Of a stretch of DNA of 64,000 nt, positions 18,168 to 64,000 are shown piece after piece. The notes under the pieces are model-generated. The model was not told the DNA's origin and did no database searches. It saw only the letters and a program-made list of their open reading frames with translations. Every line of letters starts with the position of its first letter. The stretch's first letter is position 1. Made by a program: the position numbers and the translations under genes. The stretch is from Escherichia coli (GTDB taxonomy: Bacteria; Pseudomonadota; Gammaproteobacteria; Enterobacterales; Enterobacteriaceae), in NCBI GenBank assembly GCA_902500055.1, contig GCA_902500055.1_4131.1; one strand, written 5' to 3'.

Positions 18168-18175
18168 TATAAATA
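18168..18175 (+). promoter_or_regulatory. T4-type late promoter TATAAATA (plus strand)
   Basis: Exact TATAAATA ~35 nt upstream of ATG 18210 in a divergent intergenic region. Confidence 0.5.
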
Positions 18176-18209
18176 CTAAAACACATTTATTACATGGAGA
18201 TTTAATAAA

Positions 18210-19255: not shown

Positions 19256-19266
19256 TTTTCATATAG

Positions 19267-19292
19267 CCAGCACATTGTTGCTGGTTTTTTTT
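19267..19292 (+). terminator. rho-independent terminator (CCAGCA-cattgt-TGCTGG + T8)
   Basis: Perfect 6-bp stem followed by eight T immediately after the 19046-19255 gene. Confidence 0.65.
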
Positions 19293-19440
19293 GGTTTTAA
19301 ACTACAGAATTATTTGAATTGAATTATGAAAGGATTAATTTTAATATTATTGGATTCATCTAACTCATTTCATTCGTTAGCTGAAGAATATTCGTTACTA
19401 CGTAACTCATATTCATTTAATTAAATTAATTATAAAGAAC

Positions 19441-19920
19441 TTTAAAAGATTTAATACTTGACGGGATTTGTTGAGGACATTTTCATCCCCCCGCAGGGGA
19501 ATGAAGACAATAAAAAAGAGACAATGAAGTCTCTATTTCTTGACGCTGATGGTTTCAGCATTTATTGTATTGCGAATTTCTTAAAAATATATTAAGAACG
19601 AAAGCGGGTTGCTCTGTTTCTCTCTATCGCAGTCATGTGCAACGGTCGTCAGTCTTAATCATCCTGACACTCACCTGAAAGTCTATACAATCAAACTTCA
19701 GGCTGTTTATTAAAATCACTTAATAAACTCCCTTAGCAAATCTGGTAAGGTGCGATCCTTATATGTCTATCTAGGAACTCTCTGTATGCTTATCGGAGTT
19801 CTTTATTGAGCCGCATTGCCGTGAGGGGTTCAAACTATGCCCACATCTAACGGGTTTCTTTTGCTCATCGCACTGTTGAACTGCTCATCTGCCATCTACA
19901 TTTTCGATAGGATCAGGTTC
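19441..19920. ncRNA. candidate large structured non-coding RNA in an ORF-free region (strand and ends undetermined)
   Basis: ~840 bp (19256-20092) without any ORF of 60 aa or more in six frames; the core is visibly more GC-rich than flanks and contains multiple hairpins (TCATCCCC/GGGGAATGA, AGAGAC/GTCTCT, TAAGG/CCTTA, AGGAACTC/GAGTTCTT, GCTGA/TCAGC). No canonical tRNA T-loop found. Confidence 0.25.
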
Positions 19921-36537: not shown

Positions 36538-36585
36538 ATATCATAAATAAATCAAATGAATGAACGAATTATATGGAGTCCAAAA

Positions 36586-45500: not shown

Positions 45501-46557
45501 TGAAGCAGAAATAGTTGACAATGACCTATCTGATGGTGATAAGGTGATGATTTTCACTCCTGATGGTGAAGATTTTGTGAGATATCAAAATCACACATGG
45601 GAAACAATCTTGCGTGTATCTAACATCAAAAACAATACAACTCCGATCCTATTCACTGTAAGAAATACAGGTAAGGAAACGATTGAATTGATTGATGAGA
45701 GTACTGGTGCAGTTCTCCGTTATGATAACATCACTCTTGCACAACAAAATGAGCCAGTACAGCCTCTAGCATTGAACATTGTTCGTGTTAGAACATTTGC
45801 TGACCCTGAATTTGTCAAGAATGGTATTAAATTGTATGAACAAAATAGAAATTACACCATTGATGTAATTAATTATGATGTTTTCTACGATACTACTTTA
45901 AATGGTGGTAAGTACAATGACGGAATAACACCAGATGACGTTGACGTTTGGATAATCTCTAATGAAATATTTGATGTTGATGGAATTACTATCGATAACG
46001 GTTATAACTTACCAATTACGGGTGCGGGAGTTCTTAGTGAATTGGCAAGAACTAAAATGACTGATAGTTTAGAAATCAACGTTATCGAATATGATTCAAG
46101 TGTTATTCAACCGTTTAGAAATAATGAAGGGATATGGGTTTATGGATTCCCAATGGTTGACGGTATGTATATCGGTGTTGTTGGTGGTACTGTTACTAAC
46201 ATCACAACCATTAGTGAAGAAAATACAACCTATGTTTCTCAACCTAAATCAATAAGTCCTTATAGTATTAGAAATAATGTTTTATCCGGTTCAGCCGCAA
46301 ACATGAATGATATTATATCGATTGGATATGAAAAAGTTGAAGTTAGAAATGCAAATAATTTACTCCGTGGTGTAATGTATAGTGCAGAACATGATTTTAA
46401 ACTTAATACTACATATTCTTTCAATGGAATTAATTTAGGTAATTATGATATGTTAAAACGTTACACACAAAATAGTTACACTATAGATCTTTCAGTATAC
46501 ACTGATAGTCTACAAGTTAGTGGTAATGATATTAAAAATATATTATTAGTTAAGTAA
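36586..46557 (+). CDS. giant virion structural protein (~3,320 aa), positional analogue of baseplate gp7
   Basis: Uninterrupted ~10-kb reading frame in the baseplate module; start set to ATG 36586 (GGAG 8 nt upstream) rather than track start 36556, which lacks an RBS. Non-repetitive, Asn/Tyr/Asp/Thr-rich. No catalytic motif recognised by eye. Confidence 0.6.
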   Translation: MTNNFKFQPTQMAEAVQKKLFIKRLPEWMQGLEDIQKVSDDVIQQWFNPAENELVDGYIGDMGSPAAAGNIFLHESTVARQLYQLSTAYVSKNDDSTIRSIQFYDDLVGYMNHYGALTDNESRLFNGKFYAWTPAINPNKMNNFSSYLWDTKNSYNITSPDYIVMERGALNGNTWSLQNFWYTLGETLEDGSILTEELMQDSRFIRARAPIIEYNKNIELINYGTKFRGTVDLFSDIIKPEDIVQKDINSGIRIDGIIPQDGMRILFTSIGNNGENNRIYNVYVKKMQDGTRVYGLALDPEEETESRPSGEPQDGDVVLITKGNEYGNSSMYWNGSLWVRAQSKTSVNVFPKFQLYDRNGIKLDNSTTYPSSNFKGSELFGFKINYNYATDSVYGYNIELGDYNYYIYENFLQSQRYTYDHLGKEVEIDGLYYYNIIDENNEMNLQTDWVRSEEYSKQFVKQTPQVKRTDMYRVFSTVYDMEVFKEPVDGMYAYVIEVDRTYQYYKADRETYLDWHPITGDGVQIVKYDHTFELAQKVLDNDSDIIEVVVDGVDVSKYTKNVSKGQVQSITLDSTVDLDEDSVIQIRTYSSTVTPNKELGAYEVPINLQNNPYNSNIIYINQGDYTLHFQDIIQKNITRGSSDDFNDYEERLAKGLVNNGVGTKIIQNEASMLPLMAHTANEDIDLFEATMFMQSEYFRFINKFNTQMLRMYDENPSDFLQNSAANIVDAILTTINMGRDSSFPFYYDNVGSTSGFIRAFIPPTPQFLGILQAYVPEKATFLTAGSKPSCYNISHTGIISKAYRVINGVDKMDDVVYELENRIFNSIDNKFKDVDYVPVLNSDDLFPTPYFTKTEYSAEEKQTLLLRGYINFTATNGISNSTHDYDPNNWRTWNYTGTYYVVNGQSTEIPARGSWRAIYTDQYGTYRPATHPWEMFGFSQRPTWWNQEYEPTAVQVGERDSDVVYVYEALVMNEQGDLVPSGLWDIDGTIGDSSTGTILSGDRRGQYDKYKRFGVQPFKITKTGNKTSSGIDICVVEYIAPEILGLVSGSLNHRAEPWAYGDMGDMEFTYMNTTLFAYDQMLLLYKAKPAQFANYFWDTRNDNLKEVFTDGSQFLYGDTRKRINFDKNTVVHGENNTRTIGYQMFVSDYLMYQNKNITTKYGDVVRSSYINVGHKIGGFTKADQLTFNAKSFGLISQENQTIGLVRSNNIRDEQMSAIKITWNGSAYQIDGYDLVGAKFKYKLPVKNGRKVTLKLENRNVVHYNEWKSEASIEYGKVFNSYQEVYTFICGYGEYLKEHGWIFEDVNDSGAQQDWNTIAKDFVIWSQNSLVTGEFISCTPSAANAKFGADFGSVQSITQNNGGVWSLLDDNNQGIRQYEIETSRIGNIFTVRTLESNKRIALIRLSLCSYEHAVIFDDKTIFGDYIYQPTYGSIQELIKMYGYITGSWTGRLQAPGFIILEAGTLPSFEKLVSDFQHYYDSETPVSDVQLQELSNHLIGYQSRDYLQRMISSDVSRVDFYKGFIHDKGTNQVLERVLRVSKSYDTDEYKALQEWAFKIGTYGNIDGKKNLQFKLINDQFKQQPQMVSFDVNATSNGNGNNIVYFGEQGKDPRWITRPNGKFSFPMRSGRSENIQLPDIGPVTLDEVSYTTKDFSTAYNDRITYTNGKGENPESVWMFKDGNGLWNIFELVDTNVQMVSITPIENTDVYAEQFCKVTLTDNVPLEDGDYYYFVDETNFMPDTLTVESQYYTAGSDPKVMVVPFDTSIDIEFTDPDTRPRLYRYVSRFASAEERQAYIDKKYSYKAPQSTFFDRPTTYDERTNITALYLNVYDPINGVIPGAAMQNVTYTSPIDPAQYNSNGELIQAWGADKVGQVWWNTSTAFYLDYTRAIYDADGNVDIDATNEYKRYNWGRLLPHSTIDVLEWVCSPVEPYNWDKYCKDVAKKNKNNTMYLPSGTALEDNYSTFLEYDSSTDSYVTKYYFWVRDTIYVPPLHTRTKSCTDIARIIKDPTQLNIPWFAPINENSFILSNMQFKVNDDTSILTVSYYMDSTEVVKHDQYQLCKEGDSYNFNPLIWDSMWNSLIGQETTESGSVINLLYPDVDNGLGSNKTWFQNVIEARRNFVESANNYYRSQNITTNSVVMKDVFNVKTTEVNPNEVSFRVLSYNNELVIAVESDKFKENDAVILSTSGYLPNPLTSSAVYFIHFDENGYIQLMNSPANAGSVVTITLENKGEGQHKMIKQSDYVESLGTSLDMTQYWSYADWYDVGYDSNTTYTQESSLEDANTKNYQVGDIIRVTDSENIWTLYIKSQSRDSIYWKAIGRENSTVELNDMLYADYSVHNDNGSLSNREINVRKALALLKNSFDLHQSEIVFDMVKYVHVEQSVVDWVFKTSYIYIVGLEQSLVQNYSNDNLINQIVEYFEEVKPYRTKIRSQIEQKTSDDDLIKGLCNDLDPNGYIFVDGSWIKTEKDIWDYEYAQFNEITQKWEQVGSLPSDFVTPNRRFQEIDIIMHYDNIQCKPNEDLASINELVSVNNKYQSNEKDAVSNYELQRYIYSFPEYSEETFDLLIAYQMQIYYPELDVTLGTAYGVNQWYKDHAEDLEATDEFTATLERVYKESTHNDMFTDLRQYVQYNTLANRLKLYKDISDEKIHDEVGCGFSGLTYNDNPSTRLPLGFSSSNDYNYGYFEISSELYQKYISLIKDKNPDASDYEVKVKLEVEYGVYVYRYDEVGGDTRFYTDAIHVLAGMRGLFDKDATDKYEKAEEILSKTPIDIYAITMIPRKYVYLNVNGVYQSIPDEQSIDDFMEDYFITNGEMVELAEINLDDLPLDQNNPMYSDYQYILDSITEAKYFNDMNAFDNLALESQTSSIKWEVKDDEVDPYIVDISDINPSGRDVGQIRFTVDGYGFDNVSLVQLRDNSRYQTEGMAIINPYKHTEAIVSIPSYAKIENDINKTTSKFDEKYFYRVRSINSLTEAEIVDNDLSDGDKVMIFTPDGEDFVRYQNHTWETILRVSNIKNNTTPILFTVRNTGKETIELIDESTGAVLRYDNITLAQQNEPVQPLALNIVRVRTFADPEFVKNGIKLYEQNRNYTIDVINYDVFYDTTLNGGKYNDGITPDDVDVWIISNEIFDVDGITIDNGYNLPITGAGVLSELARTKMTDSLEINVIEYDSSVIQPFRNNEGIWVYGFPMVDGMYIGVVGGTVTNITTISEENTTYVSQPKSISPYSIRNNVLSGSAANMNDIISIGYEKVEVRNANNLLRGVMYSAEHDFKLNTTYSFNGINLGNYDMLKRYTQNSYTIDLSVYTDSLQVSGNDIKNILLVK

Positions 46558-46565
46558 TAAAAAAA

Positions 46566-46597
46566 GGAGAGCATTATGCTCTCCTTTTCTTTTTTTA
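46566..46597. terminator. bidirectional terminator (GGAGAGCAT/ATGCTCTCC, A-run upstream, T-run downstream)
   Basis: Perfect hairpin between convergent giant structural gene (+) and ClpA-like gene (-). Confidence 0.65.
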
Positions 46598-48883
46598 TAC
46601 TAGTGCTTTATCTACAGCTTTGGTACGTTTCGGCTTAATACCGATTTTACCATCAATAACATCAAATGTAATGTTACCACCATTCACAAGTGAACCACAC
46701 AACATTTCTTTAGCTAGTGGTACACGAATGTTTTGTTCAATGGTACGTTTCATTGGACGTGCACCCATGCCAACTTTTACCCCATTTTTCGCAAGCCATT
46801 CACGTGCAGCTTTTGTTAATGTAACTTTAACATTACGGTCTTTGACTTGTTCATTCAAACCACCCATGAACTTATCAATGATGCTGTCAATAGCTTCACT
46901 GCTTAGGTCTTTAAACGTAACGATACTATCAATACGGTTAATAAACTCTGGTGGCAAGAATGCTTTAATTGCCTTGTCCTGTGCAGTGTCACTACCGCTC
47001 ATACCAATGCTACGCTTTGTTGAATCAGCCGCACCAAGGTTTGTAGTCATAATAACAGTTACGTTATTAAAATATACAGTTTTACCTTGAGAACCAGTCA
47101 GACGACCTTCATCCAAAACCTGTAGGAAGGTTAGTAGTACTTTACGATCTGCTTTTTCAATTTCATCAAGTAACAGTACTGCATTAGGGAACTGCTCAAT
47201 TTTATCCAACAGTAAACCGTTACCAGAATCATGACCAACATAACCTGGAGGTGAACCAATTAGTTTAGAAACAGTATGTTCTTGAGAAAATTCTGACATA
47301 TCAAAGCGAATCAGTTCCGCACCAGTTGCATCTGCTAATGCTTTGGTAATTTCTGTTTTACCAGTACCAGATGGTCCAACAAACATAAATGCACCCTGAA
47401 CACTAGATTTGTCACGCAGTCCTGCACGAGCTACCATCACGTTATCAACTAATTTTTGAATAGCTTCCTCTTGACCGTATACACGTGAGCGTAGTGCATC
47501 TGGTAGATTACGCATACGATCACTTTCAGTACATGCAACCACGTTGATATCCAAATTGGCAATACCAGCAACAACTTCTTGAATCAAATTGGCAGTAATA
47601 AGCTTACTATTGTTGTCACGTGAACGAACTTTTGCAGCGGCAGCGTCCATTAGATCAATTGCTTTATCTGGGAAGTGCTTATTCTTCAGGAATTTATCAC
47701 TGAGAGAAATTACAGCATCCATTGCATCAGTTGTGAACTCAACATTATGGAATTTTTCATAAGTTGGTTTCAAACCATTAACAATTGCACGAGTTTCATC
47801 AATTGACGGCTCAACTACATCAATTTTCATAAAACGACGAGTTAATGCACTATCTTTCTCGATATTTTTACGATATTCATCATATGTTGTTGCACCAATT
47901 ACACGAATCTCACCACGTGAAAGTGCTGGCTTAAGCATATTGCTCATGTCCATAGAACCATTACTTGCGGAACCAGCCCCAACCATAATATGAATTTCAT
48001 CAATGAAAACAATAGTATTTTCACGTTTCTTTAGTTCTTTTAGCAAATTGTCGATGCGTTCTTCAAACTCACCACGATACTTAGTACCAGCAGTCAATGC
48101 ACCAACATTTAGTGAAAGAATTTCAACGTCTTTCAGGTGTTCAGGTACGTTGCCGTCAGCAATAGCTTGTGCAAGACCGTCGATGATTTGTGTTTTACCT
48201 ACACCAGCTTCACCAGTAAGAATAGCATTCTTTTTGGTTTTGCGAGCAAGAGTCTCAATCAATGCAGACAATTCTTTCTGGCGACCAATCATAGGATCTA
48301 GTTTGCCTTCTTTTGCAAGAGCAGTTAGATTCGTTGTATAGTCTTCCAAACCTTTTTGTTTAGATGATTGCTGCTGTTGGGCCACTTTTTTATCTCCAAT
48401 CGGTTCGTCATTAATACTTTGTAAGTTGATACCCTTATCAAGTGACTCAACGTGTTTTTGCAATGCACGTGCAGCTTCAGTACAGCTAACACCTTCTTCT
48501 TTCAACGCAGCTTCTAGTGCTGTGTTAGGGAAAGACAGACATTCGAATAGAACAAAATATGCATCAATCGAAAAATCATCACTTTTTAGTTGTTCAATAA
48601 CTGATTTTTTAGAAAGCTCATGTACAACGCGATTCACTAGAAGTGAAGTGCGATTCGCGTCTTCATCTTTAACACTTTTTGGTGCATGTGGAACTGTTGT
48701 ATTTTTAAGATAGTTCATCAGGCGGTTGTGCAGTTTGTCTGCATCAATGTTCATATCTTCAAATACGTTCTTGATGCTATCAATAGTCAGTACTGTGGCA
48801 CTTACGTGGTCAATAGTCAAGAATGTATGACCTAGAGATGTTGCCAGTTCGTCGCTTTTTTTGAACAATTGAGTAAGATTCAT
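46595..48883 (-). CDS. clpA: ClpA-like double-ring AAA+ unfoldase (Clp/Hsp100 family)
   Basis: Two nucleotide-binding domains: Walker [10 protein letters not shown] and Walker B VFIDEIH; second Walker [10 protein letters not shown] and Walker [10 protein letters not shown]; KRSIGM loop and [12 protein letters not shown]-terminus closely parallel E. coli ClpA (RKSIGL ClpP-docking loop, AMGARPMARVI); no long ClpB-type middle domain. Start set to ATG 48883 with AGGAGA upstream (track start 48904 is GTG). Confidence 0.85.
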
Positions 48884-48993
48884 GTATTCTCCTATGTGAT
48901 TCACGTCACTCTAATTAATAAACATTATATCACATTCTTACGGTTTGTCTACAAGGTAAATAAAGATATACCCGATTTATTTTGGAGACAAAC

Positions 48994-54563: not shown

Positions 54564-54673
54564 TGTTTAAGCCCTTTTAGTAGTGAACTTTCATTTATTT
54601 ATTAATGATAACGAAATGTATTTTGTACTGATAAATATTGGTATATGACATTAACTCATACAAGGGAAATATT

Positions 54674-55801
54674 ATGACAATTTCATTTAACAATGGGTCC
54701 AGTGGTTCATGTAATAACTCCGGCATCAAAAGTCTAGTTATTAATGGTGCTGGGCATTTAATTGTAACCTATGCAGATAACACAATTCAAGATTTAGGTC
54801 TTGTTGTAGGACAGAATGGCGAGAATGGTAAAAACTTTTATCCTAATGAGATTGGTTTTGAAATTCCTTCCGAACAATTTAAAGTTGGTGAACCACTTGG
54901 GTGGTGCTACTTAAGCTTGGCTAACAACACCAGTACTCTATACTTTAAATCAAACGATGCACAAGATCCGACAAGTACATGGATTAGTGTTGAGTTTGGT
55001 AAAGGTGATACTGGTGAAGCGGGTAAGCCGTTCCACATTGATAGTGCTGGGACTACTTTCCCAACAACTGGTCTTTTTAATAACTATACATTTTATAATA
55101 CTCAAGATGGTAAGCTTTATTTCTATCAAAGTGTAACTGCCACTTGGAGTGATGGTATCCCTTTCCGTGGTGAACAAGGTCCGCGTGGTCGTTTCCATAT
55201 TGATAGTAGTGGTGATCAATTTCCAAGTATTGAAAATCTTCCAGTTGATTATTGTTTTTATAACAACACTGATGGAAAACTATATTATGTTGATGAAGTA
55301 ACTACAACTACCCCTCCTTCAAAAGAGTGGAGTGATGGTATTCTATTCCGTGGTAAAGAAGGTCAGCAAGGTATTCAAGGTATACAAGGCGAACCAGGTG
55401 CACCAGGTAAAGATACAATTTCTATTAGAAATACAATAGATAGCTCATGGACTAACGCACTATTAGTTATTGGTACGTGTCCTGCTGGATATGTAGTTTC
55501 TAATATTGATGTAAACGTTATACAACCTTATTCTCTTCCTGTAACTGATATGTTTGTACGTTTTGGTGGTGAAGCACAAGAAGATATTGGTGGGACTGTA
55601 ATTGCACCAACTTCCTACTTTGATATCAATCGTCAGATGCGTTTTATTGTTAATGAAACTAATCATGCAGCATCCGATGTTGATGAAATTATTTCATGTG
55701 TATTCAACGATTCTGTTAACAACAGTCCTTATGGAAAAATGGAAATTATTTGTACTCTTTCATGGCAAGCTCCTATCCAACCGATTCAAGATAATATTTA
55801 A
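54674..55801 (+). CDS. collagen-like repeat tail fibre protein
   Basis: Three copies of a ~45-aa motif (G-x-x-G-x-P-F-H-I-D-S-x-G-x-x-F-P ... Y-x-F-Y-N-x-x-D-G-K-L-Y-(F/Y)) each preceded by Gly-X-Y collagen-like tracts (GEQGPRGR; GKEGQQGIQGIQGEPGAPGKD). Start set to ATG 54674 (track start 54638 is TTG). Confidence 0.55.
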   Translation: MTISFNNGSSGSCNNSGIKSLVINGAGHLIVTYADNTIQDLGLVVGQNGENGKNFYPNEIGFEIPSEQFKVGEPLGWCYLSLANNTSTLYFKSNDAQDPTSTWISVEFGKGDTGEAGKPFHIDSAGTTFPTTGLFNNYTFYNTQDGKLYFYQSVTATWSDGIPFRGEQGPRGRFHIDSSGDQFPSIENLPVDYCFYNNTDGKLYYVDEVTTTTPPSKEWSDGILFRGKEGQQGIQGIQGEPGAPGKDTISIRNTIDSSWTNALLVIGTCPAGYVVSNIDVNVIQPYSLPVTDMFVRFGGEAQEDIGGTVIAPTSYFDINRQMRFIVNETNHAASDVDEIISCVFNDSVNNSPYGKMEIICTLSWQAPIQPIQDNI

Positions 55802-55815
55802 GGGAGGATGTCATA

Positions 55816-57957
55816 ATGGCAGTATTTTCTAATTTTGAAGGAACTATGCAGCCCAAATTCATATTGGGGAAAAAAGGTGCTTCAATAAATTTTATCAATG
55901 ATTCAGTTTCTATAAAAGATTATCTAGGAGAACAGTTCCTACCACTGAAGGTAGGAACTTCATCTGATCCTAATTCAGCAGTTAACGTAAAATATCTTGA
56001 AGATAACCCTAATGCATTATTTGGTGTTGTACCACCTACCGATGATATAGGAAAGAACAATAATACGTATTTTCAAATTGATGAAGATGGTATTGTTGAT
56101 ATTTTTGCAAAAAGCAATGGTACATGGGTAAAATCATTATACATTAATAAAAAAGTTCTATCCAGTAAAAATGGTGGAGATTTCATCGGACTTATTACTG
56201 GAGGTACAGTTCAACAGGCACAGTTTTATATAACACCAGAAGAATTTGGTGCTAAAGGTGATGGCGAAACTGATGACACTGCTGCTGTAAATTTATGTGC
56301 TGCTTATGCTAAAGAAAATAAAATCCAAATTCAGGCTGGTGGTAATTACCGTATCAAAACTGCAATATATCTGGAAGATGTAACTTGGTTTGGGGGAACT
56401 ATTACTGGTAACGGTGGTACTATGGTATCCGTTATTAATTCCCAAATACAATTTGCAACACTTACTGGATGTTATTTAAAATTCTTCGGCGGCGATGGTA
56501 AGTTTTATTTTAATAAATTTATAAACATCACAAGTACTGCTGCATTTTTAATGCAAGGTATGACACAACCAGGTACAATAGATTTTTGCTTTAATGAAAT
56601 GACCCAATGTAAGTATGGCGTTCTTCAACAAGGTACTGGTGAGAAAATGAAGGTTGGTAGATATTCATATAACCACATACATGATATATATGGTGATGCA
56701 ATTGAACTAAACGTAATTAACTCACACTATCCTGATGGTTTTGTTATTGAAGGGAACATAATTGAAAACGTTGATGGTTCTAACGCTCCAATCCCACTTT
56801 CAAACTGGGGTATTGGTATTGGAGTTGCTGGTTCTGGACCTTATGGTTTAGATGCACCAGACACACAATATGTAAGAAACTTTGTTATTAAAAATAACAG
56901 ACTATATAATGTTAGACAATGTATCCACGTTGAATTAGGCATGGACTTTAAAATACTTAATAATGAAGTTTATCCATCATCTTTAGTTTCTGTCGGTACT
57001 GGATTAACCACTGCTGGTGTTATAACTTATGGTTCTAAAGAATTCATTATTGATGGGTTGACTGGTCATTTGCTTAATGATCCTTCTATCACAAATAGAA
57101 TGGTTTCAATAAACTGGGGTGTAACTTCTGGTCGTTTTGCTGGACCACCTAGAAACTTTAAAATTTCTAATCTCTATATTCCAGAGTCTTCTATACTTGT
57201 TTATACTTCCGGTTCTGATAATTGGTTAAATAATACAGAATTGAGCAATATCACCTGTTCTAAAATTCTTTGGCGTGGTTTGCCATCATCATCTAAATTT
57301 AGTGATATTAGAACTAAAGAATTAGATGTAATTGGTCAACACCTCTCTACAGAAGGCGAAGGTGGTGGTATATATACTCGCTCTAAATATACTTATACTA
57401 ATTGGACTAACTGTGTTGTTCAAGATGATTGTAATGTTTCAAAATATAGTTTTTCTAAAATGTATGTAGACAGAATAGACCAATCATCTAATAACTTTAA
57501 AGTTACAACTGCAATCGATGGTACAGGTCACCGTGGCCCAGTACTGATACCTGTAGTTGAACAATATTATATTCCATATGATACTTTTCCAGGGGGACGC
57601 TATTTCTCTGAAGGCACGATTATTCATAAACAATCGGGTGGAAAATATATTGTAACTGTTGGTGGTTCTTTTTTCGGAAAATATGACACAATTAGACAAA
57701 CGGTAGCAGGACAAACATACATAGAAGCATTGGGTGTGTCATGGGGTGAAAACCAATATGCAAAAGCTGCTGGTACTGAGATTATTATATCTGGTGCTGG
57801 TGAAAATGGTGGTGATTTGAGAACGTATATAACTCGTGCAGTGTATGTTGTAAACAACGTATATAGAATTGATATTGCAGATCCTATCATAACAGCAACT
57901 GCCGCTGGTGCAGCATTAAAAGCCGCCCAACCCGTAACTTACATAACCCTACCATAA
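55816..57957 (+). CDS. tailspike with pectate-lyase-fold (right-handed beta-helix) polysaccharide depolymerase domain
   Basis: Signature ITPEEFGAKGDGETDDTAAVNLCAAYA typical of the pectate lyase superfamily N-terminal cap in phage depolymerases; N-terminal ~55 aa shared with the next gene; RBS GGGAGG. Confidence 0.7.
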   Translation: MAVFSNFEGTMQPKFILGKKGASINFINDSVSIKDYLGEQFLPLKVGTSSDPNSAVNVKYLEDNPNALFGVVPPTDDIGKNNNTYFQIDEDGIVDIFAKSNGTWVKSLYINKKVLSSKNGGDFIGLITGGTVQQAQFYITPEEFGAKGDGETDDTAAVNLCAAYAKENKIQIQAGGNYRIKTAIYLEDVTWFGGTITGNGGTMVSVINSQIQFATLTGCYLKFFGGDGKFYFNKFINITSTAAFLMQGMTQPGTIDFCFNEMTQCKYGVLQQGTGEKMKVGRYSYNHIHDIYGDAIELNVINSHYPDGFVIEGNIIENVDGSNAPIPLSNWGIGIGVAGSGPYGLDAPDTQYVRNFVIKNNRLYNVRQCIHVELGMDFKILNNEVYPSSLVSVGTGLTTAGVITYGSKEFIIDGLTGHLLNDPSITNRMVSINWGVTSGRFAGPPRNFKISNLYIPESSILVYTSGSDNWLNNTELSNITCSKILWRGLPSSSKFSDIRTKELDVIGQHLSTEGEGGGIYTRSKYTYTNWTNCVVQDDCNVSKYSFSKMYVDRIDQSSNNFKVTTAIDGTGHRGPVLIPVVEQYYIPYDTFPGGRYFSEGTIIHKQSGGKYIVTVGGSFFGKYDTIRQTVAGQTYIEALGVSWGENQYAKAAGTEIIISGAGENGGDLRTYITRAVYVVNNVYRIDIADPIITATAAGAALKAAQPVTYITLP

Positions 57958-57973: not shown

Positions 57974-58870
57974 ATGGCAGTTTTTTCTAATTTAGAAGGA
58001 ACCATGAAGAAGTCCTTCATTCTTGGGAAGAATGGTGCACAGATTACCACAAATGGTAGTGTTGTGCAAATTCAAAACTACTCAGGAACACAACTTCTTC
58101 CAATTTCAGCAGGTGAACCAACTGCAAACACACACTTGGTTACATTGGGATATTTAAACGCACACAGTGGTGGTGGTAGTTCTGGTATCTTACGTGGAAC
58201 AACAGCACCATCCGATTCTATTGGTCTAGATGGTGACGTTTACTTTTTGGTTGATAGTACTAATGTTCTTCAAATTTATATTAAAGATCTTGGTATTTGG
58301 AAACCATTTAAAGGTAGCTCACCGGGAACTGATAGCTCATATGTAACTACTGAAATAGTTCCTGTTTCTGCATTTACATTAGTACCAGATACTACTGATC
58401 ATTATACTTACACACTACCAGAATCAGTTCATGGTAGAGGTTCTGATATTATGATTCAACTACAAGGTGACCCAGGTAATGTTGCATTGGAATCAGTATT
58501 CCAAACCACAGTAACAGTTAGTGGTATTGGGGATATAACAATTGATGTGATTGGTCAAATCACAGATTATGCAAGTGTTAAAGTAAACATTATAGGAGCA
58601 ACAACAATGACAGTACCTTATAGTAAATTAGTAAACCAAGCCGATTGGGTTTCTAGTGCTGGTGATTTCACAATCACTATTCCAGCATCCGAACACAATC
58701 AAACCCCAGATAATTTGTATATTTCAATTTATGCAAATAAAACACCTGGAAGTGTTGCGTCATCTCCATTCGAGTTGGTAGTGACTGATACACAAATTAG
58801 TAGTACTGGTGATGTAATCTTCACTTCTGATATTTCTTTCAGTGGTAAGATTGTCATCTCCGGTAAGTAA
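57974..58870 (+). CDS. tail fibre / receptor-binding protein paralog sharing the tailspike N-terminal anchor
   Basis: N-terminus MAVFSNLEGTMKKSFILGKNGAQI... parallels MAVFSNFEGTMQPKFILGKKGASI... of the preceding gene; C-terminal region diverges. Confidence 0.55.
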   Translation: MAVFSNLEGTMKKSFILGKNGAQITTNGSVVQIQNYSGTQLLPISAGEPTANTHLVTLGYLNAHSGGGSSGILRGTTAPSDSIGLDGDVYFLVDSTNVLQIYIKDLGIWKPFKGSSPGTDSSYVTTEIVPVSAFTLVPDTTDHYTYTLPESVHGRGSDIMIQLQGDPGNVALESVFQTTVTVSGIGDITIDVIGQITDYASVKVNIIGATTMTVPYSKLVNQADWVSSAGDFTITIPASEHNQTPDNLYISIYANKTPGSVASSPFELVVTDTQISSTGDVIFTSDISFSGKIVISGK

Positions 58871-58878
58871 CAAATTAA

Positions 58879-58909
58879 CCAGGCTTGTTCTAAATAAGTC
58901 TGGTTTTTT
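58879..58909 (+). terminator. rho-independent terminator (CCAGGCTT...AAGTCTGG + T6)
   Basis: 8-bp stem with one G-U pair, followed by TTTTTT, after the 57974-58870 gene. Confidence 0.5.
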
Positions 58910-59007
58910 ATTATATTTGCTTTTGTCAAATAATGTATTAATTGTTGGATAACAGCATAATAAAACTAAATATATACATATTAACAAGGTTATAATGGAG
59001 GGTATAA

Positions 59008-62000
59008 ATGTACTCAATAAAAACTGACTTAGATATTACTGGTGCTGGTACGGTTGGTAAGGATCTTTTAGTCAAAGGAAATGCTGTTTTCAATAATAAC
59101 CTAACTGTAAATGGTACTGTAACTTTTGCAAATGCAACTTTTACTGCCATTGAATCATCAACTGCCAATATTACATCTACTTTAGATGTAGGTGGCAAAG
59201 CAACACTTTCTGGTGGTCTTGGTGTTGAGGGTAATACTACAATCGGTAGTGCAGTGGTCGGGTCTGATACAGCAACAATTAATTCAAACGCTACCTTTAA
59301 CGGTACTGTATCAGTTGGTTCTGATTTTACACAAACTGCTGGTACAACCACTCTACAAGCAACTAAAGTTAAAAACTTAGAAGTTGCTGAAACAACAGCA
59401 TTTAAAGGTAATATTACTGCTGATGTTGGTACTACTGCTGCATTTGATAAAATTACTGCTAATACCGCAGAAATTACTAATGTAAGTACAACCGATATTA
59501 GTAGTACTGGTACTGCTACATTTAAAGATGTGACAATTAGTGGTACACTTGGTGGTGAGTTTAATCTATCTGACTTAAATGCAGTAACATTGAACGTTAC
59601 TGGTGCATCTAACCAACAAGGTGCAGTAACTTTCGGTGCTAACGTAACTGGTATTAACAGTACTGCTACTTTTAAAGACATTCGTATTGGTTCTAACTCT
59701 GAATCTCAAACCTTCAGATTAAGCTTCCCTTACACTGCTCCTGGTAAACGCCCAACTGTTATTCTACAAAACGAAATTCAGTCCGAGTTAATGTCACCTG
59801 CAAACTTAACAGTTTTGACATCTGCTTCTTTTGGTAATGCGTCATTATCTTCTTATGGTATTACTGGTAATGGTCTAAACAAATTAGATTATCTAACAGT
59901 TTCTGGTAACAATACACAATCACCAGACACCCCACTATTAGAAGTTCAAAAAGGAAAAACCAAAGTTGCCGATTTTGAAGTTACAGGAACCGCAACTATA
60001 CCAAATATTGAAAGTACTGGAACTGCTAATTTTAATAATATTAATATTTCTGGTGTTCTTGGTGGAACATTCCAACTAGATGATATTAATGCAGTAACAT
60101 TGAACGTTACTGGGGCCACTTCGTTAGTTGGTGGTGTTACTCTTGGTTCTAATATTACTGGTTATAATAGTACTGCTACCTTTAAAGCTATTAGCTTAGG
60201 TCAAAATAGTCAAGATGCAGCAGTGAAACTAGGTTTTGGATATACTGCACCCGGTCAACGCCCAACAGTTATTCTACCTAATGAAGTTCAATCAGAAGTA
60301 GTTTCTCCTTCTACATTGAACGTTCTTAAAACTGCAACTTTTGGTAATGCGTCATTATCGTCTTATGGCATTACTGGTAATGGCCTAAACAAATTAGATT
60401 ATCTAACAGTTTCTGGTAACGAAACACAAGCTCCAGATACACCACTATTAGAAGTTCAAAAAGGAAAAACCAAAGTTGCTGACTTTGAAGTCACCGGAAC
60501 TGCAACTATACCAAATATTGAAAGTACTGGAACTGCTAATTTTAATAATATTAATATTTCTGGTGTTCTTGGTGGAACATTCCAATTAGACGATATTAAT
60601 GCAGCATCTTTGAACGTTACTGGTGCAACTTCATTAGTTGGTGGTGTTACTCTTGGTTCTAATATTACTGGTTATAACAGTACTGCATCATTTAAAGCTA
60701 TCAGCTTAGGCCAAAGTAGTCAAGATTCTGCTGTAAAACTTGGATTTGGATATACTGCACCAAGTCAACGTCCAACCGTGATTTTACCTAACGAAGTTCA
60801 ATCAGAATTAGTTTCTCCTTCAACACTGAACGTTCTAAAAACGGCAACTTTTGGTAATGCTGCACTTTCTACGTATGGTATTACTGGTAATGGCCTAAAC
60901 AAATTAGATTACCTAACCATTACAGGTAACGCAACACAAGACCCTAGTACACCATTCCTACAAGTTGGTGGTAAAGCAATTCTTAATGATGTTGAATTTA
61001 CTGGAACAGTAACTGGGTTAACTGTTGATGTAAGTGGTCAGGATCTAACACCAAACTCAGTTGTTGCTGCGACAAATATTAAAGGTGCAACCCTTGAAAG
61101 TACTGGTAACACTACTGTGGGTGCTAAACTAACTGTTACTGGTGATATTGCTGGTACAACTGCAACTCTTTCTGGTGCATTATCTGCTGGTTCAATAAGT
61201 TCTGGTGTTATTACTGGTACAACTTCAGTTTCAGCACCAACAATTAGTGCATCTACTGAAGTAACTGCTCCTACTATCACTGCTAGTGGGACTTTAAGTG
61301 GTCAAACTATTAACGGAACTAATATTAGTGCAACAACTCTTACTGCACCAACTATTAGTGGTAATACAAACTTTACAGAAAATGTTGATATTACTGGCAA
61401 CCTAACCGTTACTGGCACAGTAACGCCAGGTACGATTGATTTGAGCACAACTGATGTAAGTGCGAAATCTATTACTACTACCGCTGGTGCAAATATTGGT
61501 GGTGATCTTGTGGTTCAAGGTTCTTTTGATTTATCATCAGCAGACATTAGCGTTAAATCACTAACTGCTTCTGGTATTGTTAAAAGTAATGATCTTGTTA
61601 ATGCTAACGTACTTCCAGTACTTAATAGTACTACTGCAACAATTAATACTGTTAATGCAACTGAACTTGCGGTAACAGGTCCATCCAATCTAGCATCTGT
61701 TCGTACAAGTGCTGATGTTGTAGTCGGAACAACTTTAAATGTAAGTGGTGAAACAACAACTGCATCTCTAGTTACTCCATCTATTTCCAATGCAACTGGT
61801 GTTACAATTGGTAATAATACTTCTATCACTGGTGACTTAACTGTTAGTGGTGCTGTGATTCCTGGATCTATCGACCTAGCATCAACTGATGTTAACGCTA
61901 AATCAATCACAACAACTGCTGGTGCAACAATTGGTGGAAACTTAACCGTTAACGGTACAGTAGACCTAACTGCTGCTGATGTAACAGTTAAATCTCTAAC

Positions 62001-64000
62001 CAGTACTGGTGCAATCATTAGTAATGAATCAACTATTAGTAGTGTTCTACCTAAACTACAAAGTACTGATGCGACAATTGCAACTCTAGGTTCTACTACT
62101 GCGAATATTACTAATTTGAATGTAACTGGTGCAACTTCTGTTGCTGATGTAACATCTTCTGGTAAAGTTACAGCAGTTTCTATTGAAGTTCCAACCATTG
62201 GTAATACTGCGGGTGTATCTATTGCTAATAATACATCTATTACTGGTGACCTAACAGTTTCTGGTACAGTGACACCAGGTGCTATTGATTTAACAACAAC
62301 TGATGTTAATGCTAAATCAATCACAACAACTGCTGGTGCGACTATTGGTGGTGATCTTGTTGTTTCTGGTACAGTTGATTTAAGTGGTTCTGATGTATCT
62401 GTTAAATCTCTAACAAGTACTGGTATTATTACAGTTAGTAGTGCAGAAGGTATTAACGTTCTACCTAAAGTTCAAAGTACTGAAGTTACAGTGTCTGCTC
62501 TAAATGCAACAAATGCAGTAGTTTCTGGTGATGTTTCAGCAGCAACAGCTTCAATCTCAGGTGCAGTTACTGGTGGTTCAGCAACGCTATCTGGTGCTGG
62601 AACTGCTCTAAATGTAACTAATAATGCAACTGTCGGCGGTACACTTACTGTTGGTTCTATTACTTCAGCGGCAGAAAATGTATCCATTACTAAAAATACC
62701 GCTGTCACTGGTAATTTAGCAGTATCTGGAACTCTAACTGCTGGTGTTATTGATTTGAGCACAACTGATGTGTCTGTGAAGACATTAACTTCTCTAGGTG
62801 ATGCAACCGTTCAAGGTAACTTAACTGTTGATGGTTCTATTGACCTAAGTTCTGCAAACATCGTCGGTGTAACACTAGAAAGTACTGGCTCTACCACTGT
62901 AGGTACTGATTTGATTCTAACTACAGGTAACATTACAGGTAGTCCATCTATTTCTGGTAACTTGGGTGTTACTGGAACCACAACGTTAACTGGTGCAACT
63001 ACAGTTTCAAACACATTGTCAACTGGTGGTAAACTAACAGTTAATACTGGTGGTATTCAAGTAGTTGATGGTGGTATTCAAGTTGATGCAGGAACTATTA
63101 CCGCACCAAGTGCTAATATTTCTGGTGACTCTACCCTTAATAGTGCAACTGTAACTACTACCCTTGGTGTTACTGGTGCAGCTAGTATGAATGGTGGCCT
63201 TACAGCATCTACTCTAGATGTAACTGGTGACAGTACTGTACAAAAACTAACTGTTAAGGGTGCATTTATTCCTGAAGGTGGTTTGGACCTATCCGGTGCT
63301 GATCTTAACGTGAATAGCGTAACTGCTGCAACCACATTAAGTGTTACTGGTGCAAGTACTCTAACTGGTGGTGTTTCCACTTCAACTGTTACTGCATCCG
63401 GTAAGGTAACCTCACAAGAACTAAGTACTGGTACATTGGCAGTAACCACAAATGGAACAGTTGGTGGTACTTTAGATGTAACTGGAAAGGCAACAGTCGG
63501 TTCACTAGATTCAGGTGCAATATCTGCAACTTCTGGTACATTTAGTACTACACTAGGTGTAACAGGTGCAGCAACATTTGGTAACAATGTTAATATTACT
63601 GGCACGTTAACCCCAGGTGCATTGGATTTATCTAGTACTGATGTAGATGCTAACAGTCTTTCTGTTGCAACAACCCTACATTCAAACGGCAATGCAACAA
63701 TCGGTGGTACACTAGGTGTAACTGGTGCAGCAACTGCTCCATCAATCGCTCTTAATGGTGAAGGAACTGCATTAGCAGTTACTAACAATGCAACAATTGG
63801 TGGTACACTAGGTGTAACTGGAAAGGCAACTGTCGGTTCACTAGATTCAGGTGCAATATCTGCCACATCTGGTACATTTAGTACTACACTGGATGTAACT
63901 GGAGCAGCAACATTTGGTAACAATGTTAACATTACTGGCACATTAACACCAGGTGCATTGGATTTAACTAGTACTGATGTAGTTGCTAACAGTCTTTCTG
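59008..64000 (+). CDS. giant repetitive Thr/Gly/Ser/Asn-rich fibre-like protein, partial (at least 1,660 aa, continues past window end)
   Basis: Manual codon-by-codon translation from ATG 59008 (RBS GGAGGG at 58997-59002) shows no stop up to 64000: MYSIKTDLDITGAGTVGKDLLVKGNAVFNNNLTVNGTVTFANATFTAIESS... Contains three tandem ~170-aa repeats and many copies of motifs such as TPG(A/T)IDL(S/T)TTDV(N/S)AKSITTTAGA(T/N)IGG. Missing from ORF track because no stop lies in the window. Confidence 0.75.
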   Translation, partial: MYSIKTDLDITGAGTVGKDLLVKGNAVFNNNLTVNGTVTFANATFTAIESSTANITSTLDVGGKATLSGGLGVEGNTTIGSAVVGSDTATINSNATFNGTVSVGSDFTQTAGTTTLQATKVKNLEVAETTAFKGNITADVGTTAAFDKITANTAEITNVSTTDISSTGTATFKDVTISGTLGGEFNLSDLNAVTLNVTGASNQQGAVTFGANVTGINSTATFKDIRIGSNSESQTFRLSFPYTAPGKRPTVILQNEIQSELMSPANLTVLTSASFGNASLSSYGITGNGLNKLDYLTVSGNNTQSPDTPLLEVQKGKTKVADFEVTGTATIPNIESTGTANFNNINISGVLGGTFQLDDINAVTLNVTGATSLVGGVTLGSNITGYNSTATFKAISLGQNSQDAAVKLGFGYTAPGQRPTVILPNEVQSEVVSPSTLNVLKTATFGNASLSSYGITGNGLNKLDYLTVSGNETQAPDTPLLEVQKGKTKVADFEVTGTATIPNIESTGTANFNNINISGVLGGTFQLDDINAASLNVTGATSLVGGVTLGSNITGYNSTASFKAISLGQSSQDSAVKLGFGYTAPSQRPTVILPNEVQSELVSPSTLNVLKTATFGNAALSTYGITGNGLNKLDYLTITGNATQDPSTPFLQVGGKAILNDVEFTGTVTGLTVDVSGQDLTPNSVVAATNIKGATLESTGNTTVGAKLTVTGDIAGTTATLSGALSAGSISSGVITGTTSVSAPTISASTEVTAPTITASGTLSGQTINGTNISATTLTAPTISGNTNFTENVDITGNLTVTGTVTPGTIDLSTTDVSAKSITTTAGANIGGDLVVQGSFDLSSADISVKSLTASGIVKSNDLVNANVLPVLNSTTATINTVNATELAVTGPSNLASVRTSADVVVGTTLNVSGETTTASLVTPSISNATGVTIGNNTSITGDLTVSGAVIPGSIDLASTDVNAKSITTTAGATIGGNLTVNGTVDLTAADVTVKSLTSTGAIISNESTISSVLPKLQSTDATIATLGSTTANITNLNVTGATSVADVTSSGKVTAVSIEVPTIGNTAGVSIANNTSITGDLTVSGTVTPGAIDLTTTDVNAKSITTTAGATIGGDLVVSGTVDLSGSDVSVKSLTSTGIITVSSAEGINVLPKVQSTEVTVSALNATNAVVSGDVSAATASISGAVTGGSATLSGAGTALNVTNNATVGGTLTVGSITSAAENVSITKNTAVTGNLAVSGTLTAGVIDLSTTDVSVKTLTSLGDATVQGNLTVDGSIDLSSANIVGVTLESTGSTTVGTDLILTTGNITGSPSISGNLGVTGTTTLTGATTVSNTLSTGGKLTVNTGGIQVVDGGIQVDAGTITAPSANISGDSTLNSATVTTTLGVTGAASMNGGLTASTLDVTGDSTVQKLTVKGAFIPEGGLDLSGADLNVNSVTAATTLSVTGASTLTGGVSTSTVTASGKVTSQELSTGTLAVTTNGTVGGTLDVTGKATVGSLDSGAISATSGTFSTTLGVTGAATFGNNVNITGTLTPGALDLSSTDVDANSLSVATTLHSNGNATIGGTLGVTGAATAPSIALNGEGTALAVTNNATIGGTLGVTGKATVGSLDSGAISATSGTFSTTLDVTGAATFGNNVNITGTLTPGALDLTSTDVVANSLS
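59581..60960 (+). repeat. direct tandem repeat, period 510 bp (170 codons), about 2.7 copies, inside the giant fibre gene
   Basis: Copies begin at 59581, 60091 and 60601 (each starts GCAG(T/C)A...TTGAACGTTACTGG); copies 2 and 3 are near-identical over long stretches. Confidence 0.8.
63481..64000 (+). repeat. direct repeat, period ~340 bp, within the giant fibre gene
   Basis: ACTGGAAAGGCAAC(A/T)GTCGGTTCACTAGATTCAGGTGCAATATCTGC...GGTACATTTAGTACTACACT... occurs at 63481 and again at 63821 with few substitutions. Confidence 0.7.

Follow-up and report, generated by a model that had tools for sequence, protein, structure and literature searches.

What does the end of the 64,000-nt stretch of DNA analysed here (the window) encode, when the list of open reading frames (ORFs) across it holds 6-7 minus-strand ORFs of at least 60 aa and no plus-strand gene? 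The preliminary description had claimed a plus-strand frame open from ATG 59008 for at least 1,660 codons and running off the window end, and had named in-frame stops as its possible refutation. Translation of positions 59008-64000 gave 1,664 codons with 0 stops, a run expected by chance with a probability of ~10^-48.9 at the local base composition, and the same interval contains 134 and 197 stops in the other plus frames and 134, 26 and 196 in the minus frames. The open frame, alignment to the orthologue of phage CRJP21, a match to PHROG 4549 and the codon-position pattern together define the 5′ part of a long tail-fibre coding sequence (59008..64000, plus strand; codons 1-1664 and the first base of codon 1665). 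Substitutions relative to the CRJP21 orthologue numbered 150, 48 and 24 at codon positions 3, 1 and 2, and the differing codons comprised 132 synonymous and 56 non-synonymous changes; this concentration on the third position and the excess of synonymous changes identify the plus frame as coding.

A Shine-Dalgarno sequence, GGAGGG (58997..59002, plus strand), was read directly 5 nt before the ATG. A terminator-like hairpin with a 13-bp stem and a T-run (58877..58905, plus strand) lies 3′ of the preceding structural gene, where one such site was found against 0.1 expected in shuffled sequence. No sigma-70-like promoter was found upstream of the fibre gene on the plus strand, a result from which nothing follows in a phage of this kind. 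The gene is indeed absent from the ORF list, as had been described, because ORFs running past the sequence end go unlisted; it was missed solely through the window edge and is a genuine fibre gene.

The window shares 92–96% DNA identity with Asteriusvirus genomes and, judged by this similarity, is from an Asteriusvirus jumbo coliphage (PBECO4/121Q/phAPEC6 group). Its product aligned without gaps to CRJP21 gp_304 (WIL00823.1, 2,129 aa) over residues 1-1664 at 96.6% identity, hence ~465 residues lie past the window. With the length taken from this orthologue, the full gene is expected to span ~6,390 nt and encode ~2,129 aa, the window holding the first 78%. The PHROG 4549 ‘tail fiber’ profile matched most of the window protein in 9 stretches (E = 2.6e-190), and a homologue search recovered 21 homologues with identity down to 27%. 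The gene is already known as the long tail-fibre gene of PBECO4/121Q-type phages and is annotated in most relatives, with phAPEC6 gp256, 121Q gp571, CRJP21 gp_304, CBB_226 and fENko-Kae01 gp255c as its orthologues. We therefore consider it likely that the region is the 5′ 4,993 nt of an Asteriusvirus long tail-fibre gene, encoding a long, probably trimeric fibre for primary adsorption, a function that we infer.

The composition of the product agreed with the Thr/Gly/Ser/Asn/Val richness described previously (T 18.5%, G 12.1%, S 11.1%, A 9.7%, V 9.7%, L 8.4%, N 7.6%; Cys 0, Trp 0), and the short motifs quoted at that time, such as LTVNGTV, are present in the translation. The suggestion of a beta-roll was rejected, as GGxGxD motifs number 0 and the whole-protein periodicity is ~2 (alternating, beta-strand) and ~6 residues, not 9. 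Homologue alignment and periodicity (lags 6/12/24) delimit an N-terminal region of hexapeptide-periodic beta repeats (aa 1-140; 59008..59427, plus strand). It opens with the peptide MYSIKTDL.V.G...KDLLVKGNAV, columns 1-8 of which are at least 90% conserved across jumbo-phage homologues, and the same N-terminus occurs in homologues P0001-P0004 and CBB_226. This region is the candidate virion-attachment end.

Three units of a 170-aa module, termed A, follow on the plus strand; at least two units of ~170 aa after the N-terminal region are a feature of the fibre family. Unit 1 (aa 141-310; 59428..59937) was matched over aa 139-310 by an HMM derived from all three copies (i-E 8.5e-94). Unit 2 (aa 311-480; 59938..60447), detected by chunked BLAST and the HMM, shares 88% DNA identity with unit 3 (aa 481-650; 60448..60957), which HMM and allele comparison identify as an extra copy missing from the 1,959- and 1,841-aa alleles. 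A linker shaft (aa 651-796; 60958..61395, plus strand) resembling residues ~305-512 of the phiTE fibre in alignment domains 1 and 2 leads to four B units of ~140–155 aa (61396..63177, plus strand; starts at aa 797, 942, 1080 and 1235), which were located by chunked BLAST and share a core motif (TGDLTVSGTVTPGAIDL..TDV.AKSITTTAGA.IGG.L.V.G.VDLS..DV.VKSLTS.G.). Chunked BLAST and allele comparison place a C-unit region at aa 1391-1664 (63178..63999, plus strand), within which the clearest 112-aa copies (aa 1441-1552 and 1553-1664) are 69–94% identical. These units emerged from BLAST of protein chunks, the whole-protein self-BLAST giving the identity match alone. Tandem Repeats Finder reported two trivial 15-nt arrays and none of the large units, owing to unit lengths of 336–510 nt and identities of 66–88%. 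No paralogue of the fibre gene was found elsewhere in the 64,000 nt.

The Asteriusvirus fibres of phAPEC6 (gp256, QDF13883.1, 1,841 aa), 121Q (gp571, AIT14461.1), UB (AXC36801.1, 1,959 aa), CRJP21 (gp_304) and JP4 are 88–96% identical and share with the window the start, the N-terminus, the A, B and C units and the flanking genes. None matched the window allele exactly (best 96% DNA identity), and a search for an identical allele or 3′ end via contigs encoding an identical upstream protein gave 8 loci, the best at 96% and 0 identical. The size differences among the natural alleles (2,129, 1,959 and 1,841 aa) come in complete A and C units. There are three A units in the window, CRJP21, JP4 and P0002 and two in UB, P0001, P0003 and P0004; UB and 121Q are missing exactly 170 aa, or one A unit, and the 121Q/phAPEC6 alleles are without one C unit. 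Allele comparison also revealed a mosaic patch of ~1.5 kb (aa ~701-1200; 61108..62607, plus strand) with 81–93% identity to 2,129-aa alleles that elsewhere match at 99–100%, and 96% identity to the 1,841-aa allele of another locus (L015). By this sequence pattern, alleles swap the central B block through recombination.

Three plus-strand genes precede the fibre gene. The first, an orthologue of phAPEC6 gp253, encodes a 387-aa tail protein (54638..55801) with a short collagen-like stretch and a weak tail-fibre profile match, and is conserved even in Rak2; phAPEC6 gp253 reached 65.6% coverage in mass spectrometry (MS) (PMC7247149). The second encodes a 713-aa WcaM-like/pectate-lyase-like protein (‘colanic acid degradation’; 55816..57957; PF27800 WcaM), a candidate depolymerase spike. 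The third encodes a 298-aa virion structural protein (57974..58870; PHROG 10468), assigned by profile match and synteny, which is always directly 5′ of the fibre gene in the relatives compared and is a candidate adaptor. All three had been described as receptor-binding genes; the 387- and 713-aa products have such features, but for the 298-aa product the annotation goes no further than ‘virion structural protein’. The cassette order is tail protein, (WcaM-like), ~290-aa structural protein, fibre and DUF4376 protein, upstream of thymidylate synthase, its upstream half being seen in the window and its downstream half in relatives alone. A conserved pairing of fibre tip and DUF4376 partner was considered and dropped, as rV5 gp028 has no such gene after it.

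Proteomic evidence places the fibre in the particle. In virion MS, phAPEC6 gp256 (180.4 kDa) was represented by 15 unique peptides at 15.9% coverage (PMC7247149) and CBB_226 by 10 peptides (PMC5259590), and the GenBank entry of fENko-Kae01 gp255c (WNV47359.1) carries the note ‘identified with LC-MS/MS’. The fibre is therefore a virion protein in close relatives and, by orthology, presumably so for the window allele. The central claim of the preliminary description, a very long, repetitive, beta-rich fibre gene, is thus borne out by orthologues that are annotated as tail fibres and were detected in purified virions. The chain would join the tail via its conserved N-terminus, probably through the small structural proteins next to it, and its C-terminal domain would lie at the distal end of the fibre.

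This distal end, which lies beyond the window in the present allele, is a ~100-residue all-beta PF26209 domain (...GTWTPDG...FIAQR) in CRJP21 and all 2,129-aa alleles, located on a 184-aa C-terminal fragment. Its structural model (pLDDT 90–96) gave 148 viral tail-fibre matches in Foldseek, including phiTE K9L5R6 (E = 4.5e-11), and nothing in the PDB at E < 1e-3. Sequence searches with the tip returned 1 match when word-indexed and 186 clusters when exhaustive, many of the latter via the low-complexity part alone. The domain is likewise found in ~145-kb K. pneumoniae phages and throughout rV5-like phages.

AlphaFold, proposed earlier as a check on the repeats, was run as an AF2 monomer on aa 481-1200 and gave no confident fold (pLDDT 54.7, pTM 0.24), as expected for a fibre that would be intertwined. 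By analogy with the phiTE fibre, the chain would form an intertwined trimer. The phiTE fibre measures 512 Å for 793 aa (PMC11972413); scaled from this, the length would be ~137 nm for 2,129 aa and ~100 nm for CBB_226 (1,553 aa), for which a trimeric beta-helix would reach 100–124 nm, and we expect a fibre length of roughly 100–140 nm, set by the number of repeats. Bactofilin (PF04519) scored 17.8 bits on aa 1-183 against a gathering threshold of 27.9, and 27.7 bits in the distant homologue P0006. Given these weak signals a single-chain beta-helix is possible, which would be ~55–60 nm long. The ~6-residue periodicity is common to the fibre and bactofilin, a resemblance only.

Which appendage could this be? 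CBB carries ‘hairs’ of 119 ± 10 nm and baseplate fibres of 28.6 nm (PMC5259590), and the hair length fits the 100–124 nm expected from its 1,553-aa fibre. Hairs are seen in phAPEC6, CBB and fEgEco12, each of which encodes a fibre homologue, and no other appendage of hair-like length has been described for these three phages. Their attachment points are three rings along the sheath, not the baseplate. No hairs were reported for GAP32, which has a fibre homologue (PMC5259590), and the Eneladusvirus paper makes no mention of hairs or flagella. By this comparison the fibre may form the tail hairs of Rak2-like jumbo phages, a tentative assignment that we hold at rather below even confidence.

Such a fibre would act as a long flexible organelle with which the phage first, and reversibly, touches its host. 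The fibre's most likely target, to our minds somewhat short of an even chance, would be the flagellar filament. Indeed, phiTE is flagellotropic, and fENko-Kae01, whose only annotated long fibre is gp255c, needs flagella for adsorption; the Asteriusvirus SHEFM2K is reported to be flagellotropic. K. pneumoniae is non-motile. Rak2-type phages of this host keep the flanking genes and are without the fibre cassette. The tip itself is not flagellum-specific, since it is also found in the ~145-kb phages of this non-motile host and in rV5-like phages. Swaps of the B block would vary the specificity of the fibre. Combining these points, the fibre might be the hair or whisker of phAPEC6, CBB and fEgEco12 that catches rotating flagella, binding multivalently via the exchangeable B block and not the conserved tip, with its reach tuned by gain and loss of 170-aa and 112-aa units; we put this fuller picture forward as a possibility, more doubtful than either of its parts.

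A possible but likewise doubtful alternative is a classical T4-like long tail fibre, anchored at the baseplate periphery and folded along the sheath, whose tip reads LPS, an outer-membrane protein or capsule and which is unrelated to hairs or flagella. [quoted passage not shown] However, electron microscopy of phAPEC6, CBB and fEgEco12 shows six short baseplate fibres only (~29 nm in CBB), and hairs are the sole appendages of at least ~100 nm. Sequence homology to T4 gp34 was not found (Pfam; PDB sequence search at E ≤ 1). Furthermore, the tip is most conserved across hosts and the middle is variable and exchanged, the opposite of a fibre with tip specificity.

Less probable, and in our view unlikely, is a fibre that passively decorates the tail or capsid and serves, for example, mucus or biofilm adherence or virion stability, with no role as receptor binder or infection trigger. 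The phAPEC6 authors propose ‘entanglement’ by hairy fibres and mention unassigned fibres on the capsid as well (PMC7247149), which together with the low-complexity composition and a tip conserved across hosts would suit such a role. Yet the gene has tail proteins and a depolymerase-like protein as its cassette neighbours, the cassette is missing in phages of non-motile K. pneumoniae, and allele exchange in the central block, with many non-synonymous changes, is what host-range determinants typically show. At one copy in each capsid hexamer the protein would also rank among the most abundant in the virion, and the 15.9% MS coverage does not point that way. An adsorption fibre, possibly the hair, remains the reading that we prefer.

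It is very improbable that the gene is an assembly artefact or pseudogene, with collapsed or expanded repeats and no full-length protein. Such an origin might be suspected from the internal DNA repeats of 88% identity, from one short-read (Logan) assembly that splits the gene into 323 + 1,522 aa, and from the PBECO4 record, which ends within the fibre gene and whose two ends join out of frame. However, an uninterrupted frame of 1,664 codons, the signature of purifying selection, a three-A-unit layout that recurs unchanged in five or more independent assemblies and GenBank genomes, and orthologue peptides in three virion proteomes all argue for an intact gene.

Even less credible is that the phage carries a surface adhesin of bacterial type or a homologue of a cytoskeletal protein (a YadA-like trimeric autotransporter, an RTX beta-roll, FliK or a bactofilin). 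Depositors have used the names ‘YadA domain protein’, ‘autotransporter’, ‘flagellar hook-length control protein’ and ‘polymer-forming cytoskeletal protein’, and the weak bactofilin matches point the same way; against this, orthologues are virion components, the RTX-type GGxGxD motif is lacking, and no membrane anchor, secretion domain or YadA head/stalk match (Pfam E ≤ 1) was detected. No Pfam family reached threshold on the whole protein or pieces, and none appeared at E ≤ 1 on the window or full CRJP21 protein in a Pfam copy without PF26209, PF26208 and PF27800.

The minus-strand ORFs comprise one of 247 aa (58938..59681), which equals gp549 of the PBECO4 RefSeq record, and five of 80, 269, 96, 67 and 287 aa within 61038..63941 (61038-61280, 61515-62324, 62472-62762, 62811-63014 and 63078-63941). 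The ORF list, the stop analysis and the CRJP21 comparison mark all as artefacts. They had been attributed to the repeats; their artefactual nature stands, but the cause is amino-acid composition. All share one frame, in which the 26 stops all lie opposite sense Gln/Tyr codons, and long ORFs arise there because stops need sense Gln/Tyr, residues nearly absent from the fibre. That these ORFs are real genes and the plus frame fortuitous is hardly conceivable: three are called as hypothetical proteins (gp549-551) in PBECO4 (NC_027364.1), but their Val/Leu/Pro/Ala-rich products mirror the sense protein, the 269-aa ORF (61515-62324) has two stops in the CRJP21 version, and they are unannotated in CRJP21, UB, 121Q, phAPEC6, CBB and fENko-Kae01. 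In the PBECO4 record the fibre gene is unannotated and its 3′ remainder goes under the name ‘YadA domain protein’; the antisense calls there result from the record ending inside the gene. More generally, a gene truncated by the end of a window or record drops from ORF lists and compositional antisense ORFs take its place, as in this reference genome.

The gene is the best candidate for the protein forming the ~120-nm hairs on Rak2-like jumbo phages and for how Asteriusviruses engage flagella. The alleles of 1,841, 1,959 and 2,129 aa are a ready-made test of appendage length against allele length, and the mosaic central block probably determines host range, a point relevant to phage therapy with these coliphages.

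Beyond Asteriusvirus, the fibre can be compared with several known systems. Its homologues in other Rak2-like jumbo phages, CBB_226 (1,553 aa), fENko-Kae01 gp255c (1,560 aa) and the fibres of GAP32, Serratia BF and Erwinia Eneladusvirus, have its N-terminal peptide, carry two A units, possess the tip domain and lie in a syntenic cassette; they are only 30–35% identical to it, have different shaft repeats and are shorter. The annotation of many relatives, ‘long tail fiber proximal subunit’, goes back to T4 gp34, which is likewise longer than 1,200 aa, trimeric, beta-rich and built of repeated modules in a contractile-tailed phage. A further counterpart is the phiTE long fibre (K9L5R6, 793 aa; PDB 9CUY/9MJN chain g), whose chain 9CUY_g was the sole phmmer match in the PDB at E ≤ 1 (E = 5e-28), with query residues 550-776 aligned to chain residues 205-512 as domains 1-2. 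It is a trimer by cryo-EM and a predicted extended beta-helix, with residues 14-171 built (PMC11972413); the region homologous to the jumbo fibre falls outside these experimentally built residues. The phiTE and rV5-like (Vequintavirinae) fibres, the latter 26–28% identical to the jumbo fibre, share with it an A-like module, the PF26209 tip and the shaft motifs ‘V.V.G.DI.P.SV’ and ‘DLS..D...KSL’. They differ, however, at the N-terminus: the phiTE fibre has a helical ‘rip-cord’ bundle and a globular domain docking on the wedge and sheath initiator, and the rV5-like homologue P0021 a different, alpha-rich N-terminus, whereas the jumbo fibre starts with beta repeats (MYSIKTDL...), is without the helical-bundle anchor and resembles the phiTE chain only from residue ~205 onwards. 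The jumbo fibre is also 2–2.7 times longer than that of phiTE, with 2–3 A units instead of one and with the B and C arrays added.

Translation of the plus strand from ATG 59008 found the frame open to the end of the window, as first described (59008-64000; 1,664 codons, no stops), with 134 and 197 stops in the other plus-strand frames of the same interval and 134, 26 and 196 in the antisense frames. At the local base composition, an open frame of this length would be expected by chance with a probability of ~10^-48.9. The ATG is preceded by GGAGGG (58997-59002, plus strand), and a terminator-like hairpin with a T-run lies at the end of the upstream gene (58877-58905). Substitutions relative to the closest full-length relative, CRJP21 gp_304, numbered 150, 48 and 24 at codon positions 3, 1 and 2, and the differing codons comprised 132 synonymous and 56 non-synonymous changes, hence the plus frame is coding and under purifying selection. 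The gene is indeed missing from the ORF track, because only ORFs which do not run off a source end are listed. Its product, which lacks Cys and Trp, has the reported Thr/Gly/Ser/Asn/Val-rich composition (T 18.5%, G 12.1%, S 11.1%, A 9.7%, V 9.7%, L 8.4%, N 7.6%). The finding is real, and the preliminary description had interpreted it essentially correctly.

The region shows 92–96% nucleotide identity to the Asteriusvirus jumbo coliphages CRJP21, JP4, PBECO4, UB, G17, phAPEC6 and 121Q, and a gp15-like tail-completion protein near the fibre gene recurs unchanged (100% identity) in about 20 records. Annotated orthologues of the fibre include CRJP21 gp_304 (2,129 aa), UB AXC36801.1 (1,959 aa), 121Q gp571 (1,841 aa) and phAPEC6 gp256 (1,841 aa). 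The window protein aligns to residues 1-1664 of gp_304 at 96.6% identity with no gaps, leaving ~465 residues outside the window. Profile searches placed it in PHROG 4549 “tail fiber” (E = 2.6e-190) and in none of the families of a local Pfam copy. Orthologues were detected in virions of phAPEC6 (gp256, 180.4 kDa, 15 unique peptides, 15.9% coverage; PMC7247149) and CBB (CBB_226, 10 peptides; PMC5259590), and fENko-Kae01 ENKO_255c (WNV47359.1) is marked “identified with LC-MS/MS”. The gene is already known: close relatives have it annotated and verified by proteomics. New here are its unit-level architecture, whole-unit length polymorphism and mosaic B block, a precise account of its antisense ORFs, the mis-annotation of a reference genome, and a testable link to virion hairs and flagella.

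The layout of the fibre was derived from chunked self-comparison and unit HMMs. An N-terminal region (residues 1-140), whose first residues (MYSIKTDL...) are near-invariant across all jumbo-phage homologues, is followed by three A units of 170 aa (141-310, 311-480 and 481-650; A2 and A3 share 88% DNA identity), a linker (651-796), four B units of about 140–155 aa (starting at 797, 942, 1080 and 1235) and C units of 112 aa, the clearest at 1441-1552 and 1553-1664. Hydrophobic residues alternate with a period of ~2 and recur with a period of ~6 (lags 6/12/18/24), and the protein contains neither RTX GGxGxD motifs nor octapeptide repeats. Of the two folds originally offered, beta-helical or beta-roll, these periodicities argue for a shaft of the hexapeptide-sided beta-helix type, and the complete lack of GGxGxD motifs argues against a beta-roll. 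A bactofilin profile scored 17.8 bits, below its 27.9-bit threshold. The AF2 monomer model of residues 481-1200 (22-sequence alignment) was of low confidence (pLDDT 54.7, pTM 0.24), as might be expected of an obligate intertwined oligomer, and proves nothing.

The minus-strand ORFs all lie in a single antisense frame in which wobble faces wobble. Stops in such a frame are possible only opposite sense TAY (Tyr) or CAN (Gln/His) codons after a suitable third base, and all 26 antisense stops occupy exactly these contexts (18 Gln, 8 Tyr). These residues are scarce in the protein (12 Tyr, 1 His, 33 Gln), so the long antisense ORFs arise from its composition; they are artefacts, as proposed, but not of the repeats. 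The PBECO4 RefSeq record (NC_027364.1) is linearised inside the fibre gene (343121-348113 and 1-1620), which it leaves unannotated, listing three antisense ORFs as hypothetical proteins (gp549-551) and naming the 3' remainder “YadA domain protein” (gp001). Joining the record ends did not restore the reading frame. The phAPEC6 record (MK817115.1) lacks CDS features at 185866-189071 and 194598-197524 for gp254, gp255, gp257 and gp258, which flank the fibre gene on both sides; the DNA there is conserved, and relatives have these genes annotated.

Fibre alleles differ in length even on contigs encoding an identical 298-aa upstream protein (2,129 aa, n = 4; 1,959 aa, n = 1; 1,841 aa, n = 2). The UB fibre equals that of CRJP21 less exactly one A unit, and the 121Q and phAPEC6 fibres are shorter by an A unit, 6 aa and precisely one C unit, the rest being 93–100% identical. 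Two A units are the rule among the distant homologues, most of which have that number, so the third was gained recently in tandem. None of the contigs compared carried the window's allele (best 96% identical). Its divergence from the 2,129-aa alleles is concentrated at residues ~700-1200 (81–93% identity, against 99–100% elsewhere), a patch 96% identical to the 1,841-aa allele of contig L015, which is otherwise more distant; the gene is therefore a recombinational mosaic, with conserved ends and an exchangeable B-unit block. A short-read assembly (L014, Logan SRR12907740, 11038-16564) splits the gene into 323 and 1,522 aa, either by a frameshift or by an assembly error inside the repeat region, indicating that it is error-prone in such data. 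Near-complete Asteriusvirus genomes also occurred inside bacterial assemblies (L010-L013 and L015-L017, NCBI GCA; contigs of 343–350 kb, one of 229 kb), which fits reports of hidden lytic phages.

Three plus-strand genes precede the fibre: a 387-aa tail protein (54638-55801; phAPEC6 gp253, 65.6% MS coverage), kept even in Rak2, a 713-aa WcaM-like/pectate-lyase-like protein (55816-57957; precomputed Pfam WcaM PF27800), and a 298-aa structural protein (57974-58870). The 713-aa protein, with a sub-threshold pectate-lyase-like match and ~100–230 N-terminal residues resembling tail-spike and tail-fibre N-termini (PHROGs), is a likely depolymerase spike; its “MutT/NUDIX” label in the CRJP21 record is apparently a shifted annotation. 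Both the 387-aa and 298-aa proteins carry a “G-D/N-x-Y-F...G-x-W” type motif, one with a short collagen-like G-x-y run, features frequent in the N-terminal parts of short phage fibres, and they may be adaptors holding the giant fibre. Downstream in relatives are a DUF4376 structural protein, a variable slot, a 654-aa protein and thymidylate synthase. The slot (about 17,450-19,700 in loci L010-L017) is empty in some genomes and elsewhere holds a 455-aa, a 496-aa or a 291-aa protein, the last with a Phage_tail_NK match, and has the look of a further receptor-binding module open to exchange. Further upstream is the largest gene in these phages, a 3,333-aa ORF (36556-46557, plus strand) with no Pfam domain and a full-length match to PHROG 10938 “virion structural protein”; the proteome of phAPEC6 virions includes its orthologue gp245 (381.9 kDa), and Rak2 has a conserved counterpart (ORF070w). 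The ORF is flanked by a baseplate wedge gene and, at 46595-48904 on the minus strand, a full two-ring ClpA/ClpB-type AAA+ gene (Clp_N, AAA, AAA_lid_9, AAA_2, ClpB_D2-small), also conserved in Rak2, which lies on the opposite strand amid the baseplate/tail structural module and could encode a chaperone for giant structural proteins.

The full-length orthologues close with a module free of repeats (...GTWTPDGTSNVY...FIAQRTA). It is the one part of the fibre with a sequence relative in the PDB, the “putative tail fiber protein” of phiTE (793 aa; 9CUY/9MJN chain g, E = 5e-28), which also shares an A-like module. Pfam PF26209 sits on a 184-aa C-terminal fragment, tying that family to the tip, and the last ~100 residues of the fragment are confidently predicted as an all-beta domain (pLDDT 90–96). 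Foldseek of this model against the PDB gave no solid match; in BFVD it returned 148 viral matches at E ≤ 1e-3, including phiTE K9L5R6 and further tail fibres as well as fibres with collagen repeats, which marks it as a generic fibre-terminal domain. The module was present in 341 phage records (tblastn), including all rV5-like phages and ~145-kb K. pneumoniae phages, hence the tip itself is not host-specific.

We propose a trimeric beta-structured fibre, attached by its conserved N-terminus, probably via the small structural proteins encoded next to it, and carrying the tip domain at its far end. The phiTE long fibre is a trimer, docked on the wedge and sheath initiator by an N-terminal helical bundle; only residues 14-171 were modelled, with the remainder AF3-predicted as a “highly extended beta-helix” and a total length of 512 Å (PMC11972413). 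Scaling from phiTE at 0.65 Å per residue, fibres of 2,129 aa and 1,841 aa would measure ~137 nm and 119 nm, and CBB_226 100 nm. The hairs of CBB measure 119 ± 10 nm (PMC5259590) and baseplate fibres about 29 nm, hairs being the only appendages of the scaled size described for these virions. They are anchored on the sheath in three rings in phAPEC6 and also noted for fEgEco12, and the papers on hairy phages explicitly assign them no gene. That the fibre forms the hairs is possible, if somewhat doubtful; counting against it, GAP32 has a fibre homologue and hairs were not reported (PMC5259590). Flagella are the most likely target, a tentative assignment, and the generic tip domain, also found in phages of non-motile hosts, counts against it. 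The Rak2-type phages of K. pneumoniae, a non-motile host, lack the fibre cassette; no match to the fibre was found in them, and between the retained flanks only two small genes separate the tail protein from thymidylate synthase. Three carriers of this fibre family are flagellum-dependent, namely phiTE, fENko-Kae01, whose fibre homologue is its only annotated long fibre, and, going by a title cited in PMC11895373, Asteriusvirus SHEFM2K. The size match to hairs, these three flagellum-dependent phages and the absence of the cassette from the K. pneumoniae phages therefore favour a long-reach primary-adsorption organelle.
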